Shown here: one piece after another, positions 5,789 through 12,552 of the stretch
Layout of the letters: each line of letters opens with the position of its first letter
Numbering within the stretch: the stretch's first letter is position 1
Virus record (IMG/VR): IMGVR_UViG_3300029467_000153
Reading direction: 5' to 3' (one strand)
DNA: 25,684 bases
Origin: a virus
Lineage: Duplodnaviria > Heunggongvirae > Uroviricota > Caudoviricetes
Program-made: the position numbers and the translations under genes
Notes under the pieces: generated by a model
Told to the model about the DNA's origin: nothing
Database searches by the model: none
Seen by the model: only the letters and a program-made list of their open reading frames with translations

Positions 5789-5929
5789 TATCGCGTCCTC
5801 AACAATGAATTTTGTGATGCAGTGCCTGGTGCCTCCAGGTGACGTTAACCAGTTAACAATTAACGTCGGATATTCGAACGCTGGAAGGCTATCGACACCA
5901 GGGATAAGCGTGAAAAGTTCACGGCGCTA

Positions 5930-6193: not shown

Positions 6194-7046
6194 ACGCCCA
6201 CTGGTTATAAACACACAGCTTGCGATGAAGATTGGCTTAAATGAAGCCATTGTGTTGCAGCAGTTGCATTACTGGTTGAGAGATACCAATTCCGGCATGG
6301 AATGTGATGGTGTTCGCTGGATTTACAACACAACGGAACAATGGCTGGAACAGTTCCCATTCTGGTCAGAGTCAACGTTAAAGCGCGCGTTTGCAAGTCT
6401 GAAAACGCTGGGGCTTTTGCGTTGTGAAAAGCTCAATAAATCAAAGCGCGATATGACCAATTTCTACACGATCAACTACGGGAGCGAGCTTTTAGATGGT
6501 GGCAAATTGAGCGAATCCATCGGTTTAAAATGCGCCGCTCCATCAGGTCAAAATGACACGATGGAAGAGGTCAAAATGAAACGCTCCATTGGTTCAAAAC
6601 GACCCAATGTCATCGGGTCAAAATGGCCTGATGATCTTACAGAGAATACAACAGAGATTACTACAGAGAATAAAAACACTTTTCGTCCGGAAGCTTCGCA
6701 ACCGGACCCGCAGACCGCTGAACAGGATTTTTTAACCCGGAACCCCGACGCGGTTGTGTTTAGTGCGAAAAAACGCCAGTGGGGTAGCAGGGAGGATTTG
6801 GCGTGTGCGCAGTGGATTTGGGGGCGGATCGTGAACCTTTACGAACAGGCTGCCAGCGACGATGGAGAGATCATGCGACCAAAAGAGCCTAACTGGACAG
6901 CCTGGGCCAATGACGTGCGCACAATGCGGATGCTGGATGGCAGAAGCCACAGACAAATTTGCGAAATGTTTGGTCGGGTAAGCCAGATTCTGGCACTGAC
7001 AGATAGAAAGCCTGTTATCTGTCAACGAACAGGGAAAAAACGATAA
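6174..7046 (+). CDS. phage replisome-organiser / replication-initiator-like protein (winged-helix N-terminal domain)
   Basis: Start chosen at the internal ATG 6174 (MSLLFAERPLVINTQLAMKIGLNEAIVLQQLHYWL...); the N-terminal pattern ...EQWLEQFPFWSESTLKRAFASLKTLGLLRCEK resembles DnaD / phage replisome-organiser N-domains. Recognised by pattern only. Confidence 0.45.
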   Translation: MSLLFAERPLVINTQLAMKIGLNEAIVLQQLHYWLRDTNSGMECDGVRWIYNTTEQWLEQFPFWSESTLKRAFASLKTLGLLRCEKLNKSKRDMTNFYTINYGSELLDGGKLSESIGLKCAAPSGQNDTMEEVKMKRSIGSKRPNVIGSKWPDDLTENTTEITTENKNTFRPEASQPDPQTAEQDFLTRNPDAVVFSAKKRQWGSREDLACAQWIWGRIVNLYEQAASDDGEIMRPKEPNWTAWANDVRTMRMLDGRSHRQICEMFGRVSQILALTDRKPVICQRTGKKR

Positions 7047-7566
7047 AACCCACTGGATTATTTTTATGAAAGAGGCATCCAGTGAGTAGATTCGTAAGGT
7101 TACAGATACGTATATCTGAATAATTAAATTCAGTTCTGTAAATAAAACTTAATCCTTAACCGGATGGATTTCTGCACCCTCAGAACATCAGGAGGCCGCC
7201 CGAAAGGGCGGTAGTGAAATGCGAAAGTTCAAAATTATTATTGAAACGGGAATAGCTGGTGGAGATTTTGAGGATGTATTCGAAGTGGACGATGACGCAA
7301 CACCTGATGAAATTCATGACGGAGCATAAGAAATTTTCTTTAACTACTGCAATTACTCATACCACGAAATAAAAGACGATGAGGAAGAACAAAGTGGCTG
7401 ATTTTTGTTCAGCTAAATATAACATCAGTTTTGAAGAGCGGGATGAACTATTAATGGACTATGGTGAGTTACGCGGTGGAAGTGCTGCTGATGTCGAATC
7501 CTAGCGTGATGACTATGAAGCGGGAAAAACTCCGGTCGAAGCATATTGTGATGAGTGGGGCGATGA

Positions 7567-7854
7567 ATGAGCGAGATTAATTATCAGGAAGGGCATGAAA
7601 CGGCGGGGCAAGCAAAACCAGTGACATGGCGATATCGCTACGTGAAAAAAGGCGTTACGGACTTTCAGGGGAAGTAGTGGTCTGGTGACTGGAAATATGT
7701 ACCGAAAAAAGAGGATTGTAACGACAGGCCGAACTATCAAATTCAGGCCTTATTCACTGCCTCACCAGTCCCGGTTACATCAGAAGAATTGGTTAAAGCT
7801 GTGCACTTTTATGAACAACTAAAACGCGAAAATCCACCAACATCCGGCAACTAG
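7567..7854 (+). pseudogene. about 95-codon ORF interrupted by a single in-frame amber codon
   Basis: MSEINYQEGHETAGQAKPVTWRYRYVKKGVTDFQGK-TAG(7675-7677)-WSGDWKYVPKKEDCNDRPNYQIQALF...PPTSGN in one frame; the frame stays open on both sides of the stop. Confidence 0.3.
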
Positions 7855-8108
7855 ATTAATGGGTTAACTATGTCGGTTAAACGACCAGCCAACTGAAAAA
7901 GCGGAAACCTGATTACAGGTTGCCAGATAAGGCAATGAGCTACCTGGCGCGGAACGGACTGATAAGTATGGGGAATGTTTTACGATGAACCTTTAGACTA
8001 AAGAGTTTGTAACGCTATGTAAGTGATTTTTTCTGGTTTAGATATTTATATGTCCGGCCAAATTGAGGTGTGTTTAAATGTAATTGCACATTGATTGTAG
8101 GAGGAATA

Positions 8109-8246
8109 ATGAAAAACGCATTGCAGTTTTTGTTTGTTGCGTTCTGGTTGTTCGCATCATGTATGCCCATCATCTTCACAGCAAGGTATATGGAAAAAGT
8201 TGATGTTTTGATATTAATATTTGGATATATAAATGCCCTTTTTTAG
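8109..8246 (+). CDS. small hydrophobic (membrane) protein, 45 aa
   Basis: AGGAGG at 8099-8104, 4 nt before ATG 8109; product MKNALQFLFVAFWLFASCMPIIFTARYMEKVDVLILIFGYINALF is largely one hydrophobic helix. Confidence 0.35.
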   Translation: MKNALQFLFVAFWLFASCMPIIFTARYMEKVDVLILIFGYINALF

Positions 8247-8621
8247 GGGTGTTCATGGCGGTCATGTGCATTGAATACTGGCGGTAAATACAGCGAACTC
8301 CATTGGTTTAGTTGGATATTTACTGTGCTGGACAAAAACGGTTTGCGGGGAAATCTTAGTTAAGTAGAATGACTGCGGGTGCTTGAGGCTATCTGCCTCG
8401 GGCACGAACACCAACGGCAGGTAGAGAAAAGCCCCAGTTAACATTACGCGTCCTGCAAGACGCTTAACATTAATCTGAGGCCAATTTCATGCCAGACACA
8501 TGTAGGTTAGCCTCTTACGTGCCGAAAGGCAAGGAGAAGCAGGCTATTGTTAACACCAAGCTGTAATGTCCCCTTTGAACCATTCTAAAATGTCCCCAGA
8601 CAATTCTCTGGGGGATTTTTC

Positions 8622-9963
8622 ATGACCAAAGAAACTGTTACGATGAGTCATAAGGAACTCCACCGACTTCAGATTATTCAGGAGTCAATTAATCGACATA
8701 TTACTCAGGAACAAGCTGCGGCACGCATTGGCATTTCTATTCGGCAGGTTAAACGTCTGGTGCAACGGTATAGAAATGAAGGGCCTTCTGGTCTGGTTTC
8801 CCACCGACGTGGAAAGCGTCCTAATAATTCCTTTTCTACTGAATTCAGAGCAACAGTAATTTCACTCCTCAAAGGCCGTTACGCTGATTTTGGACCTACG
8901 TTTGCGTGCGAAAAATTGCGCGAGATACACGGTTTATCTTTATCCGTTGAAACTCTCAGAAAGTGGATGATAGAAGAGGGGGGTATGGCGTGAACGCCGT
9001 CGTAAAATTGCCCGTATATATCAACGCCGCATGCGACGACCATCTTACGGTGAACTGATCCAGATTGATGGCTCACCTCATGACTGGTTTGAAAATCGAG
9101 GCCCCAGATGTACACTGATCGTTTTCATTGATGATGCCACCAGTGCGTTGATGGCGTTGCGTTTTGTGCCTGCTGAAACAACCCGGGCTTACATGGAAAC
9201 CCTCCGGGGTTACCTTAATGATCATGGCGTACCGCTCGCTCTCTACTCTGATAGACACAGTATATTCAGGGTAAATAACCCAGAGCGGGAAGGTGAGCTG
9301 ACCCAGTTCACTCGTGCGATAAAGACACTGGGCATCGAGCCAATCCATGCCAACAGCCCGCAGGCAAAAGGGCGGGTAGAGCGCGCCAATCAGACACTAC
9401 AGGACAGGCTGGTCAAAGAAATGCGGCTTCAGAATATCAGTGATATTGAAACAGCAAATGCATGGTTGCCGACCTTTATTGAAGCCTATAACAACCGGTT
9501 CGCTACGTCGCCTCGTACTACTGATAATGCTCATCTTGATGTGCACCATTCTGAAGAGGAACTGGGTTATATCTTCAGCCTACAGGCGAAGCGCGTTCTG
9601 TCTAAAAATCTCACTTTCCAGTACAAAAGCAGTGCGTTTCAGGTACGCAGTGAGGGCCGGGGATATCGACTTAGGCATTCGGTTGTTACTGTATGCGAGA
9701 ACTTTGACGGTGAAATTAACGTTCTGTATGACGGGAAAGCGCTGGGCTGGGAAAAGTATGTTGATGGCCCGGAGCCTATACCACTGGATGATGAAAAGAG
9801 TGTCCATGAACGAGTGGATAATGCCCGTATTGATTTACGCTCAAAATACTATGTTAAACCTAAAGCTGACCATCCCTGGCTTACGCGCCGAACGCAAAGT
9901 CATCAGCAAGTTAAGCCCCCGAAGTTACCTAAAAAGAAGCCTGATCCCGATAAAAAAGATTGA
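8622..9963 (+). mobile_element. IS-element DDE transposase (N-terminal HTH plus integrase-core/rve-like domain), split by a frameshift
   Basis: ORF 8622-8993 (HTH-like N-terminus) and ORF 9031-9963 (DDE-like motifs IQIDGSPHDW, YSDRHSIF, SPQAKGRVERANQTL) are in different frames and overlap around a G6 run at 8978-8983; removing one G fuses them (...MIEEGVWRERRRKIARIYQRRMRRPSYGELIQIDG...). IS family and terminal inverted repeats were not determined. Confidence 0.65.
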
Positions 9964-10399
9964 AACCAAGATCGATTCGGTTGAGTGCATATCCATTCAT
10001 AGGGTAGATTCTTAAGTCGCGTTTCTGGTGTTCATTTTCGGGTGGTTTGTTACTTGTTTTACCGGGGATATGCCAGAAACGCGCTGAGTCAGTCTGGGCG
10101 GTGCGCGTAATGAGGCGTTATGGTAAATAGCCTATGCTAATGTCCGCTAAGAGCAAGAAGCGGAAGTTGGCAGTTTTGTGGACTGTCCCCACAAAAGTGA
10201 CTACAGAAATAGTTGCAATTCATAATTGATCATGGGTTGTCAGTTAAACTCGTGGCGATTTAAATAGACTAATTGGGAGTGCGTCCATTACTTATATCTT
10301 GTAATGTTAACTATCAGAAATGATACAAAGATAATATGTCTTTAAAGAAAAGGCTGATGGCGAAAAGTGGCCCGATGAGGGCCACAATACGGCTGTCAC

Positions 10400-10732
10400 T
10401 TAGACGTAAATATCAATGGTGCCAGCGGTATTTGTATCGTCTTTTTTCTCTTCTTTTTTATCAGGCTGAACTGTCGCGTCTTTATTCTTTTTCTCTGCCT
10501 GCTGCCTTAACAACTGCTCCAGTTGAGCCCTGAGGCTTTCAATTTGCTTCTGTACCAATGCAGCCATTTCTTTTTTCTGCTGTGTCGTCATCCCCTCTTC
10601 CGATGAGATTTTCCCAAGCTTTTCAGTCAGCACCTGAATTTGTCTTGTGATTTTGGCTATTTCTGATGTTCCTTCCGGGGCGGAGTTGTTTGAAATAACG
10701 GTTGAGGTATTTCCCTGAATTGTGACAGACAT
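10400..10732 (-). CDS. flxA: FlxA (FliA-regulated protein)
   Basis: 110-aa ORF MSVTIQGNTSTVISNNSAPEGTSEIAKITRQIQVLTEKLGK... matching my recollection of FlxA; AAGGAG Shine-Dalgarno 7 nt upstream; a sigma-28-type promoter lies immediately upstream. Confidence 0.75.
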   Translation of the reverse strand: MSVTIQGNTSTVISNNSAPEGTSEIAKITRQIQVLTEKLGKISSEEGMTTQQKKEMAALVQKQIESLRAQLEQLLRQQAEKKNKDATVQPDKKEEKKDDTNTAGTIDIYV

Positions 10733-10755
10733 AGATTTCTCCTTTTAAAAAAGCA

Positions 10756-10782
10756 CTATCGGCATGCACAAAAAAATCTTTA
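10756..10782 (-). promoter_or_regulatory. sigma-28 (FliA) class-3 promoter of flxA
   Basis: On the minus strand TAAAGATT-N11-GCCGATAG against the consensus TAAAGTTT-N11-GCCGATAA, about 25-50 nt upstream of the flxA ATG. Confidence 0.6.
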
Positions 10783-10934
10783 ATCGTATTTCTTGTGTCA
10801 TTAATTGTTTGATGTTCAGATTGTTTTCCTCGCGGGCTGGCGCGCCTCAGAAAGTAAAGCTTGTTGACAGGGGTAAACGTTCGGCAATAATTTTCTGCCG
10901 CATGCGGGTGTTGCATAAAACGTGCTACGTTCCT

Positions 10935-11240
10935 TTATCGACAGGTCAGGTCACCGCTCACCCGCCGACGAGAAAGCAACACTGACATGCTAAAGCAAAA
11001 AATAGATGAATAAGTTGAGTTGTGCATATGTAGCCTGACCGTCACAAAGTATATGGTGTCTGTACCAGTAAGATGATGGCCGGACTCTTTAAAAACGAGC
11101 TGACCTGCACAATACAGGATGGACTTAGCAATGGCTGCTCCTGGCACAAAGCGGACAGTGATCACCGTTCTTACGACTACTTTCTGACTTCCTTCGTGAC
11201 TTGCCCTAAGCATGTTGTAGTGCGATACTTGTAATGACAT
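10935..11240 (-). CDS. hypothetical protein (YdfV-like by position)
   Basis: 101-aa ORF divergent from relB; assigned only by position and length relative to K-12 gene order. Its start abuts the relB operator, which is suspicious. Confidence 0.25.
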   Translation of the reverse strand: MSLQVSHYNMLRASHEGSQKVVVRTVITVRFVPGAAIAKSILYCAGQLVFKESGHHLTGTDTIYFVTVRLHMHNSTYSSIFCFSMSVLLSRRRVSGDLTCR

Positions 11241-11253
11241 TTGTAATTACAAG
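11228..11253 (+). promoter_or_regulatory. relBE operator (relO-type inverted repeats) in the relB promoter
   Basis: cttgtaatgacatttgtaattacaag contains the perfect palindrome TTGTAATTACAA plus an additional TTGTAAT half-site, ending 12 nt before the relB ATG. Confidence 0.6.
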
Positions 11254-11264
11254 AGGTGTAAGAC

Positions 11265-11504
11265 ATGGGTAGCATTAACCTGCGTATTGACGATGAACTT
11301 AAAGCGCGTTCTTACGCCGCGCTTGAAAAAATGGGTGTAACTCCTTCTGAAGCGCTTCGTCTCATGCTCGAGTATATCGCTGACAATGAACGCTTGCCGT
11401 TCAAACAGACACTCCTGAGTGATGAAGATGCTGAACTTGTGGAGATAGTGAAAGAACGGCTTCGTAATCCTAAGCCAGTACGTGTGACGCTGGATGAACT
11501 CTGA
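11265..11504 (+). CDS. relB: RelB antitoxin
   Basis: 79-aa ORF MGSINLRIDDELKARSYAALEKMGVTPSEALRLMLEYIADNERLPF... (ribbon-helix-helix antitoxin); GAGGTG Shine-Dalgarno; stop overlaps the relE start (ATGA). Confidence 0.9.
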   Translation: MGSINLRIDDELKARSYAALEKMGVTPSEALRLMLEYIADNERLPFKQTLLSDEDAELVEIVKERLRNPKPVRVTLDEL

Positions 11505-11791
11505 TGGCGTATTTTCTGGATTTTGACGAGCGGGCACTAAAGGAATGGCGAAAGCTGGGCTCGACGGTACGTGAACAGTTGAAAAAGAAGCTGGTTGAAG
11601 TACTTGAGTCACCCCGGATTGAAGCAAACAAGCTCCGTGGTATGCCTGATTGTTACAAGATTAAGCTCCGGTCTTCAGGCTATCGCCTTGTATACCAGGT
11701 TATAGACGAGAAAGTTGTCGTTTTCGTGATTTCTGTTGGGAAAAGAGAACGCTCGGAAGTATATAGCGAGGCGGTCAAACGCATTCTCTGA
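11504..11791 (+). CDS. relE: RelE mRNA-interferase toxin
   Basis: 95-aa ORF MAYFLDFDERALKEWRKLGSTVREQLKKKL...GYRLVYQVIDEKVVVFVISVGKRERSEVY, translationally coupled to relB. Confidence 0.9.
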   Translation: MAYFLDFDERALKEWRKLGSTVREQLKKKLVEVLESPRIEANKLRGMPDCYKIKLRSSGYRLVYQVIDEKVVVFVISVGKRERSEVYSEAVKRIL

Positions 11792-11862
11792 ACCAAAGCA
11801 TGACATCTCTGTTTCGCACCGAAGGTGACACTTCTGCTTTGCGTTGACAGGAGAAGCAGGCT

Positions 11863-12018
11863 ATGAAGCAGCAAAAGGCGATGTTAATCGCCCTGATCGT
11901 CATCTGTTTAACCGTCATAGTGACGGCACTGGTAACGAGGAAAGACCTCTGCGAGGTACGAATCCGAACCGGCCAGACGGAGGTCGCTGTCTTCACAGCT
12001 TACGAACCTGAGGAGTAA
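11863..12018 (+). CDS. hokD: Hok-family type I toxin (HokD/RelF)
   Basis: 51-aa ORF, below the ORF-track cutoff, found by direct translation: MKQQKAMLIALIVICLTVIVTALVTRKDLCEVRIRTGQTEVAVFTAYEPEE; carries the Hok signature TRK.LCE.R....EVA.F.AYE and sits just downstream of relE. Confidence 0.85.
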   Translation: MKQQKAMLIALIVICLTVIVTALVTRKDLCEVRIRTGQTEVAVFTAYEPEE

Positions 12019-12086
12019 GAGACCCGGCGGGGGAGAAATCCCTCGCCACCTCTGATGTGGCAGGCATCCTCAACGCACCCGCACTT

Positions 12087-12112
12087 AACCCGCTTCGGCG
12101 GGTTTTTGTTTT
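12087..12112 (+). terminator. rho-independent terminator after relB-relE-hokD
   Basis: aacccgc-ttcg-gcgggtt hairpin followed by tttttgtttttatttt. Confidence 0.6.
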
Positions 12113-12234
12113 TATTTTCAACGCGTTTGAAGTTCTGGACGGTGCCGGAATAGAATCAAAAATACTTAAGTAGCGCGCAGGGATAAGAGGGATGGTCCCT
12201 TAAAGGGGAGAGCTAATTATCCGGAAGGATTCTG

Positions 12235-12486
12235 ATGATGAACATCGAAGAACTGCGTAAAATTTTTTGTGAAGATGGCCTCTATGCTGTGTGCGTTGAA
12301 AATGGAAATCTTGTTAGTCATTACCGCATTATGTGTTTGCGAAAGAATGGGGCTGCGTTAATTAATTTTGTGGATGCTCGGGTCACGGACGGATTTATCT
12401 TGCGCGAAGGTGAGTTTGTCACTTCATTACAGGCATTGAAAGAGATCGGAATAAAAGCTGGCTTTTCTGCTTTTTCAGGAGAATAA
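12235..12486 (+). CDS. rem: small prophage protein Rem-like
   Basis: 83-aa ORF adjacent to hokD as in K-12 Qin; assigned by position and recollection, function unknown. Confidence 0.55.
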   Translation: MMNIEELRKIFCEDGLYAVCVENGNLVSHYRIMCLRKNGAALINFVDARVTDGFILREGEFVTSLQALKEIGIKAGFSAFSGE

Positions 12487-12552
12487 ACTCATCTACAATC
12501 TTGCGCGGGGCTGAACTCCCGCTGAGTAACACCGTGCCACCGGAGAAAACCG

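Follow-up and report, generated by a model that had tools for sequence, protein, structure and literature searches.

Evidence that a frameshifted ISEsa1-type transposase gene is the left arm of a relBE-carrying transposon at the hokD start codon of a Qin prophage

Introduction

The IS1202 group of insertion sequences (IS) belongs to ISNCY and has been proposed as the IS1202 family, described with one transposase open reading frame (ORF) of 394–507 amino acids (aa) (PMC10132070). It has been split by the length of the target-site duplication (TSD) into elements with 5–6, 15–17, and 27–28 bp, and its members carry TGT termini (Siguier et al., bioRxiv 10.1101/2022.12.17.520857); no conserved target was found for the members with long TSDs or for those with none (PMC10132070). 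ISEsa1 is tabulated (Harmer & Hall 2023, PMC10132070, Table 7) at 1609 bp, with terminal inverted repeats (TIRs) of 15/22 and a 439-aa transposase; a TSD was absent "when multiple examples were examined". Here we analyze a transposase gene of this type that is split over two reading frames at positions 8622–9963 of a 25,684-nucleotide stretch of DNA (the window) from the IMG/VR virus record IMGVR_UViG_3300029467_000153, which is part of the Escherichia coli cryptic prophage Qin. The two ORFs are, very probably, one IS1202-family (ISEsa1-type) transposase killed by the lengthening of a G5 run to G6, and the left arm of a 3302-bp transposon inserted with a 15-bp TSD at the Shine-Dalgarno (SD) sequence and start codon of hokD.

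Results

Two ORFs constitute one transposase gene

All coordinates are those of the window, and features lie on the + strand unless indicated otherwise. The N-terminal part of the transposase is encoded at 8622–8993 (123 aa, frame 0) and ends at a stop codon induced by the frameshift, and the catalytic (DDE/RNase H) and C-terminal part occupies 8983–9963 in the +1 frame, where the listed ORF starts at an ATG at 9031 (9031–9963, 310 aa). The first ORF matches the Pfam helix-turn-helix (HTH) families HTH_28, HTH_32, HTH_29, and HTH_23, and the second matches the integrase core rve_3 and, with 319 bits, the NCBIfam profile NF033594 (ISNCY_2, "ISNCY family transposase"), which the two ORFs cover consecutively (profile positions 1–104 and 122–365). 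When the window is read as 8622–8981 followed by 8983–9960, the product agrees with an intact transposase of 446 aa, from a copy on a Salmonella plasmid, at 119 of 120 and at 326 of 326 residues, the latter being residues 121–446 of the intact protein; the single extra G is therefore the sole lesion. Intact copies on plasmids and some chromosomes (the Salmonella plasmid, E. coli MSI001, and others) consist of 1341 bp with a single 446-aa ORF, and the match of NF033594 to an intact 446-aa relative (P0002; 464.7 bits, cutoff 250) is unbroken across the junction.

A previous reading of this DNA, made from the sequence only, had placed the HTH and DDE parts in frames 0 and +1, as the ORF calls and domain matches bear out, and had judged the junction not to be the usual IS3-type −1 slippery site. 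We agree: a slippery heptamer and a −1 downstream ORF kept among relatives are not found here, the offset is +1, and the single-ORF relatives have a shorter G run or none.

Ends and target-site duplication of the mobile unit

The region 5′ of the transposase start was aligned from 26 loci (E. coli, Shigella, Salmonella, Klebsiella, Enterobacter, Citrobacter, Kluyvera, Scandinavium, and others), and all 26 become alignable exactly at TGTTAA (8548), whatever the flank. The left inverted repeat (IRL) that this alignment delimits, TGTTAACACCAAGCTGTAATGTCCCC... (8548–8620), contains two subterminal direct repeats (...AATGTCCCC; 8555–8573 and 8579–8597) identified by a repeat search, and a hairpin with a T-run is predicted just 5′ of the transposase start (8593–8614). 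The right inverted repeat (IRR; 11822–11849, − strand; reverse complement TGTCAACGCAAAGCAGAAGTGTCACCTT) directly follows the relE stop codon, is conserved in all relatives, and closes the element with ...GTTGACA. IRL and IRR are identical at 21 of 28 positions, and no inverted match to IRL elsewhere in the 25.7-kb window is as good. The 15-mer GGAGAAGCAGGCTAT abuts both ends, at 8533–8547, where it spans the hok SD to the AT of the ATG, and as a perfect repeat at 11850–11864; it occurs exactly twice in the window and in none of 100 shuffles. The mobile unit thus delimited, 8548–11849 (3302 bp), comprises IRL, the transposase gene (tnp), a cer/dif-like site, variable cargo (flxA and ydfV), relB, relE, and IRR.

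The sequence-only reading had left the family and the ends of the element unassigned, having found neither TIRs nor a TSD by eye. For the intervals that it named, 8450–8620 and 9964–10250, this was correct, and the inverted and direct repeats within 8440–10300 are weak pairs at the level of chance; the ends were missed because the true right end, at 11849, sits 1.9 kb past the search interval. With IRL starting at 8548, IRR running to 11849, and a 15-bp TSD, the element can now be placed in the IS1202 family (ISEsa1 type). The Prokaryotic Genome Annotation Pipeline (PGAP) labels the gene "IS1202-like element ISEsa1 family transposase". As in that family, there is a single large DDE transposase with an N-terminal HTH region (446 aa in the intact relative, within the range of 394–507 aa, with the one-base break in the window), the ends are TGT (8548–8550) and ACA (11847–11849) with imperfect TIRs (about 22–28 bp in the family), and the TSD has a subgroup-typical length (3–6, 15–17, or 27–28 bp in the family; exactly 15 bp here and 13–16 bp in relatives). 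The element departs from the family in size and content, since family members have 1.3–1.75 kb with a transposase alone (or, as a "tIS", with one passenger ORF) and this one has 3302 bp, its relatives 4.5 to ~32 kb, with several passengers; the more fitting name is an IS1202-family transposon or tIS.

More distant relatives in Hahella sp. SMD15-11 (62% identity) are plain 1.5-kb IS in at least 10 copies (loci L028–L038 and L053), with perfect TGT...ACA ends, symmetric GGGGACAT subterminal repeats, and TSDs of ~15–17 bp in unrelated targets. On sequence comparison, they appear to fix the basic chemistry of the lineage. In one of these copies (L029), a second copy begins directly after its TSD.

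The insertion splits the hokD locus

The Rfam model RF01794 ("sok") matches 8377–8548 over its full length (model positions 1–157; 99.8 bits, gathering score 59, E = 1.6e-22), and the final AUG of the model falls on the transposon junction. The 171 bp left of IRL (8377–8547) are an orphaned hok mRNA leader, that is, the mok/sok regulatory region of hokD, whose coding sequence (CDS; 51 aa, 11863–12018) now stands behind relBE. This CDS is annotated as hokD in IAI1 and K-12, and its product scores 48.5 bits against the Hok family profile NF007279, under the cutoff of 73. The right TSD copy runs into the ATG of hokD, which places the insertion exactly at the hokD SD and start codon, and the duplication regenerates a ribosome-binding site before hokD, directly behind relBE. 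Where an intact hok locus has the leader directly followed by a Hok-family CDS, the 3302-bp transposon splits the leader from the CDS here. Beyond the CDS, positions 12027–12108 give a weak match to Rfam isrK (25 bits, under the gathering score) over a terminator at 12087–12104, probably the stem-loops at the 3′ end of the hok mRNA.

In 1999, Pedersen and Gerdes reportedly put the loss of hokD activity down to a "major genetic rearrangement" that they did not identify.

Conserved modules flank a variable cargo slot

The conserved left (tnp) module ends at 10156–10165 (...GAGAAGCGGAC(A) in relatives), where homology between contexts with different cargo stops. The slot that follows (10166–11133, without strand) holds flxA (10400–10732, − strand) and part of ydfV (annotated ORF, 10935–11240, − strand), so flxA, next to which the sequence-only reading had placed the element, on the side of the early region, is cargo inside the transposon. 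Elsewhere, the same slot carries ncrYCBA and chrBA (Phytobacter and K. michiganensis plasmids), an IS110-type gene, or a LysR gene with membrane proteins and transporters. The conserved right module (11134–11849; relB promoter region, relB, relE, and IRR) begins where homology with a Phytobacter copy (L077) resumes, at CTGGCACAAAGCGGACA. Its relB (11265–11504; RelB NF008412, 133 bits, cutoff 96) and relE (11504–11791; RelE TIGR02385, 54.7 bits, cutoff 27.9) overlap by one base at 11504 and constitute a type II toxin-antitoxin pair. The slot is bracketed by AAGCGGA(A/C) at 10158–10165 and 11149–11156, and likewise in the 12.8-kb Phytobacter version (L077, ~12650).

Near the end of the left module, 37 bp before the slot, lies a cer/dif-like XerC-spacer-XerD core, GGTGCGCGTAA-TGAGGCG-TTATGGTAAAT (10100–10128), which is the sole match to the pattern in the window and has no match in shuffles. 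It is similar to the dif-like sites listed in Table 8 of PMC10132070 and is kept in relatives down to 80% identity, where the core reads GGTGCGTACAA-TTAGAGCG-TTATGGTAAAT. The sequences of the Qin and Klebsiella versions begin to diverge at the spacer of this core. A hok-leader-like sequence was also noted just inside ~10130–10165, for which a fossil duplication was considered.

A right end of the element at ~10165–10168, where homology with the Klebsiella copies stops, was considered and rejected, since the match to IRL there is 7–11/28 and no TSD is present. Position ~10165 marks a boundary between modules inside the element rather than its terminus. ISEsa1-type elements would have been recorded without a TSD or target because their accepted right end is this boundary.

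Related transposons at other sites

A Salmonella Brandenburg IncI plasmid carries the tnp-flxA-ydfV-relB-relE unit, with an intact transposase, between the leader and the CDS of pnd, a member of the hok family (flanks TGGAGGGGCTATGAT), and a Phytobacter IncF plasmid carries the 12.8-kb version (ncrYCBA and chrBA) between a hok leader and a canonical hok CDS (flanks GGAGAAGTCAGCTAT). Among 20 transposase-holding genomes that were searched, 17 contain relE followed by IRR, and wherever its position was compared with that of tnp it shares the contig and strand of tnp and lies 3.3 to ~32 kb downstream. A script that pairs left and right flanks returned exact TSDs of 13–16 bp for 12 distinct insertions, and one further pair raised the number to 13. 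Ten of the 13 insertions are at hok-family start regions with differing leaders and CDSs, and in eight loci full-length Rfam hok-leader matches end no more than 2 nt from IRL. The motif GGCA(A/T) stands just left of the TSD at most of the hok sites and at two of the three other insertions. In Leclercia sp. EMC7 (L024, 2390–2510), relE and IRR are followed by GAAGGCTATG (10 bp, hok-start-like) and then by a further IRL and tnp, which makes two related elements in tandem. On the Salmonella IncI plasmid (L076, 4596–5102), a second hok-type leader (RF01794, 67.5 bits) lies within 1.5 kb of the right end of the transposon, and the same stretch contains two AgrB antisense-RNA matches beside a dinQ-like toxin gene, forming a cluster of type I toxin loci.

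History and distribution of the G run

The 1-bp insertion lies in a G6 homopolymer at 8978–8983 (ATAGAAGA-GGGGGG-TATGGCG). The length of six given by the sequence-only reading is right, but the string it quoted, gagggggggt, has one G too many. Alignment of the junction yields three forms: the shortest, GAGGGGTTATGG (GGGGTT; ...EEGLW), in K. michiganensis, S. flexneri, and E. coli 1303; a middle form, GAGGGGGTATGG (GGGGGT; ...EEGVW), in MSI001 and the Salmonella plasmid; and the longest, GAGGGGGGTATGG (GGGGGGT), in the window and IAI1. At the junction, a homopolymer is lacking in relatives with protein identities of 94%, 80%, and 62%. These forms point to stepwise growth, in which a T-to-G change extended the run and a slip then added a G. 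We scanned 5,426 complete E. coli genomes, of which 788 carry this stretch. The exact G6 91-mer is present in 50 of these carriers, IAI1 included (~6%), the exact G5 form in five, and a one-base-shorter form with one single-nucleotide polymorphism in ~730. Across 8450–10250, 17 complete E. coli chromosomes match the window at 100% identity, and IAI1 matches it at 99.9%. The extra G thus appears to be a young, inherited, inactivating 1-bp insertion (G5 to G6) present in a minority of E. coli, and because the transposase is broken without recoding, the copy in the window is non-autonomous at best.

Other carriers have suffered different lesions. E. coli 1303, which has the majority allele GGGGTT, has lost 27 bp in frame (SINRHITQE) from the first HTH region (L007, 3188–4528); the deletion falls between 13-nt direct repeats, CAGATTATTCAGG and CATATTACTCAGG, that stand 27 bp apart at 8670 and 8697 (window 8670–8709). 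K-12 keeps just the last ~185 bp of the gene, ~86% of tnp having been deleted. The frameshift is ordinary gene decay, and what the window adds is the history of the G run and a complete, two-ended copy of the transposon.

Alternative explanations

The sequence-only reading had offered an inactivating insertion, a sequencing error, and +1 recoding for the split gene, of which the first stands. Under recoding, the two frames would be joined into a full-length transposase at the G run, by a programmed +1 shift of the ribosome or by slippage during transcription, as happens in IS3 and IS1 at −1 sites. Two overlapping frames do meet at a homopolymer, and an HTH-only product would resemble the regulatory OrfA of other IS families; however, intact relatives are single ORFs and the family is described with one (PMC10132070), the run is G4 or G5 in near-identical copies and gone in relatives of 94%, 80%, or 62% identity, which leaves no conserved signal, and G6 occurs in just ~6% of the E. 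coli carriers. We regard recoding as next to impossible. Length errors are common in homopolymers, and an error in sequencing or assembling this record would leave the gene intact in the cell, yet 17 complete genomes match 8450–10250 without a difference, and the 50 genomes with the G6 91-mer include IAI1, where PGAP likewise calls two pieces. Because independent assemblies would need the same error while ~730 others show a different, consistent allele, such an error is exceedingly improbable. The frameshifted allele might be kept since its HTH-only product of 123 aa is of benefit, perhaps as a repressor at the element ends or a blocker of incoming copies. The first ORF is intact with both HTH motifs retained, and PGAP calls it as a separate protein in many genomes; the allele is nevertheless rare and one base away from intact copies, and therefore very young, and the other carriers are broken otherwise (the 27-bp deletion in 1303 and the large deletion in K-12), which looks like neutral decay. 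We consider a benefit of this kind very improbable.

The extent of the element can also be read differently, with the 1.6-kb ISEsa1 of ISfinder (8548 to ~10165) as the mobile element and relBE, flxA, and the distal repeat as nearby Qin prophage DNA. The listed length of 1609 bp and TIR of 15/22 (PMC10132070, Table 7) would agree with this, as would the fact that conservation across cargo contexts stops at ~10165, where several relatives end in ...GGACA. The proximal "end" matches IRL at only 7–11 of 28 positions, as compared with 21 of 28 for the distal one, and no locus has a TSD around the 1.6-kb unit, which agrees with the published absence of a TSD; perfect 13–16-bp TSDs instead surround the long units at 13 independent sites, and the whole tnp-flxA-relBE unit has moved into the pnd gene of an IncI plasmid. 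A 1.6-kb element is accordingly very unlikely, and the 3302-bp transposon with a frameshifted transposase is the reading that we retain.

Prophage context and the K-12 remnant

The gene order in IAI1 is dicB ... dicA, dicC ... transposase, flxA, ydfV, relB, relE, hokD. Relative to IAI1, the window has two deletions, of ~2.07 kb at ~5869–5872 (dicA, dicC, and ydfABC) and of ~0.99 kb at ~6977–6988, neither of which touches the transposon, and it is collinear with IAI1 at 99.95% across 6977–12500. The suggestion of the sequence-only reading that the element may mark a deletion of the immunity and replication genes does not hold: IAI1 has the same frameshifted element yet keeps dicA and dicC, and the junctions are at ~5870 and ~6980. 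That the IS caused the loss of dicA and dicC is ruled out by this collinearity.

In K-12, a separate deletion runs from the dicC side into the transposase, with loss of the hok leader and IRL, and flxA, ydfV, relBE, IRR, and hokD are retained. The transposon is unrecognizable in the K-12 reference because this deletion removed its left part. The K-12 gene ydfW consists of the last 49 codons of the transposase (window 9814–9963), and because PGAP protects ydfW, it labels the open 446-aa copies "incomplete; missing C-terminus" (IAI1, 1303, and MSI001).

Discussion

Our analysis indicates that DDE transposition brought the unit to the SD and start codon of the Qin hokD and duplicated 15 bp of the target. 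The TnsB-like DDE transposase would bind the ...AATGTCCCC repeats at IRL and, at IRR, diverged versions of them, and make staggered cuts ~15 bp apart, and its choice of target may involve the DNA just 5′ of the TSD, either the last stem-loop of the leader or the GGCAA motif. The lineage would actively prefer hok translation-initiation regions. In the window, hokD may have escaped the antisense control exerted by Sok and come to depend on read-through from the relBE promoter, presumably as in the known relBEF arrangement of K-12. The predicted hairpin and T-run at 8593–8614 could shield tnp from read-through from the hok promoter, and the Xer-like site at 10100–10128 may serve multimer resolution or cargo exchange.

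For the wider lineage, we lean, if only slightly, toward a view in which ISEsa1 represents the transposase arm of cargo transposons that form a family (3 to >30 kb). Their single TnsB-like transposase would home to the SD and start codon of hok-family type I toxin genes on plasmids and prophages, relBE would always stand at the right end and face outward, and this type II module of the element would take the place of Sok control in an "addiction-module swap". In such a family, the internal cer-like XerCD site at the cargo slot may aid cargo exchange, and the relBE, flxA, and relBEF of K-12 would be products of one transposition. In the searchable library, we found no description of a hok-targeting or relBE-carrying IS1202/ISEsa1 transposon, and a recent preprint surveying Hok is silent on it.

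Several observations weigh against these interpretations. The presence of G6 in this particular record rests on identity to other assemblies. Three of the 13 insertions are not at hok sites, and one of the ten that are, in Citrobacter portucalensis, uses the same 15-bp SD-ATG site of hok but is reversed, with the hok CDS left of IRL and the leader right of IRR (L023, 2380–2500; L079, 1770–1860); because of these three insertions and the reversed one, target specificity is a preference, not a rule. That preference is suggested by ~13 natural insertions, which selection could have shaped. The ISEsa1 of ISfinder is compared here by its published figures (1609 bp, TIR 15/22; PMC10132070, Table 7). 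Finally, the model does not account for different cargos all starting at ~10165 (...AAGCGGAC, again at 11149–11156).

If upheld, the preference for hok translation starts rather than dif would be a second kind of site-directed insertion for the IS1202 family, and as a single transposase would suffice for targeting, the mechanism of recognition is testable. The transposition would provide a concrete origin for the much-studied E. coli relBE with hokD (relF) behind it and would explain the relB-relE-hokD arrangement. Several K-12 "y-genes" are explained as well, ydfW as the tail of the transposase and ydfV, along with flxA, as transposon cargo. On Klebsiella, Phytobacter, and Enterobacter plasmids, this vehicle brings in nickel and chromate resistance genes and at the same time disrupts the hok/sok stability systems, which matters for plasmid biology and for annotation.

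Comparison with known systems

The two ORFs recall the transposases of IS3 and IS1, which are made by programmed −1 frameshifting, in that an HTH ORF is followed by an overlapping catalytic ORF; the +1 offset, the lack of a conserved slippery site, and the single-ORF intact relatives set the window apart, and the resemblance is accidental. The relBE-hokD (relBEF) locus of K-12, with the ydfW, ydfX, and "intK" remnants in its Qin prophage, has identical genes in the same order, but K-12 lacks the hok leader, IRL, and ~86% of tnp, whereas the window keeps both ends and both TSD copies.

Among elements of the IS1202 family, ISEsa1 is the closest by the PGAP label, by the length of the left module (8548 to ~10165, 1618 bp, vs. 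1609 bp), and by its single HTH and DDE transposase of ~440 aa. As tabulated, it has neither TSD nor target, whereas the element described here has a distal IRR, a 15-bp TSD, relBE with variable cargo, and a bias toward hok starts, and its transposase has 446 aa as opposed to 439. The ISTde1-type subgroup, compared by its features, shares the TGT...ACA ends, a subterminal conserved block, and TSDs of ~15–17 bp, a pattern that the Hahella relatives at 62% identity follow exactly; the members of this subgroup differ in being IS of 1.3–1.7 kb without cargo and without a reported target preference. The ISAjo2/ISAba32-type elements, which target the XerCD sites dif and pdif, belong to the same family and likewise use a single TnsB-like transposase for site-directed insertion without accessory targeting proteins, and there is a link to Xer in both cases, as the element here holds an internal cer/dif-like core. 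They generate TSDs of 5–6 bp and insert at dif targets, 5 bp from the XerC arm and in one orientation, whereas the TSDs here are 13–16 bp and lie at the SD and ATG of hok.

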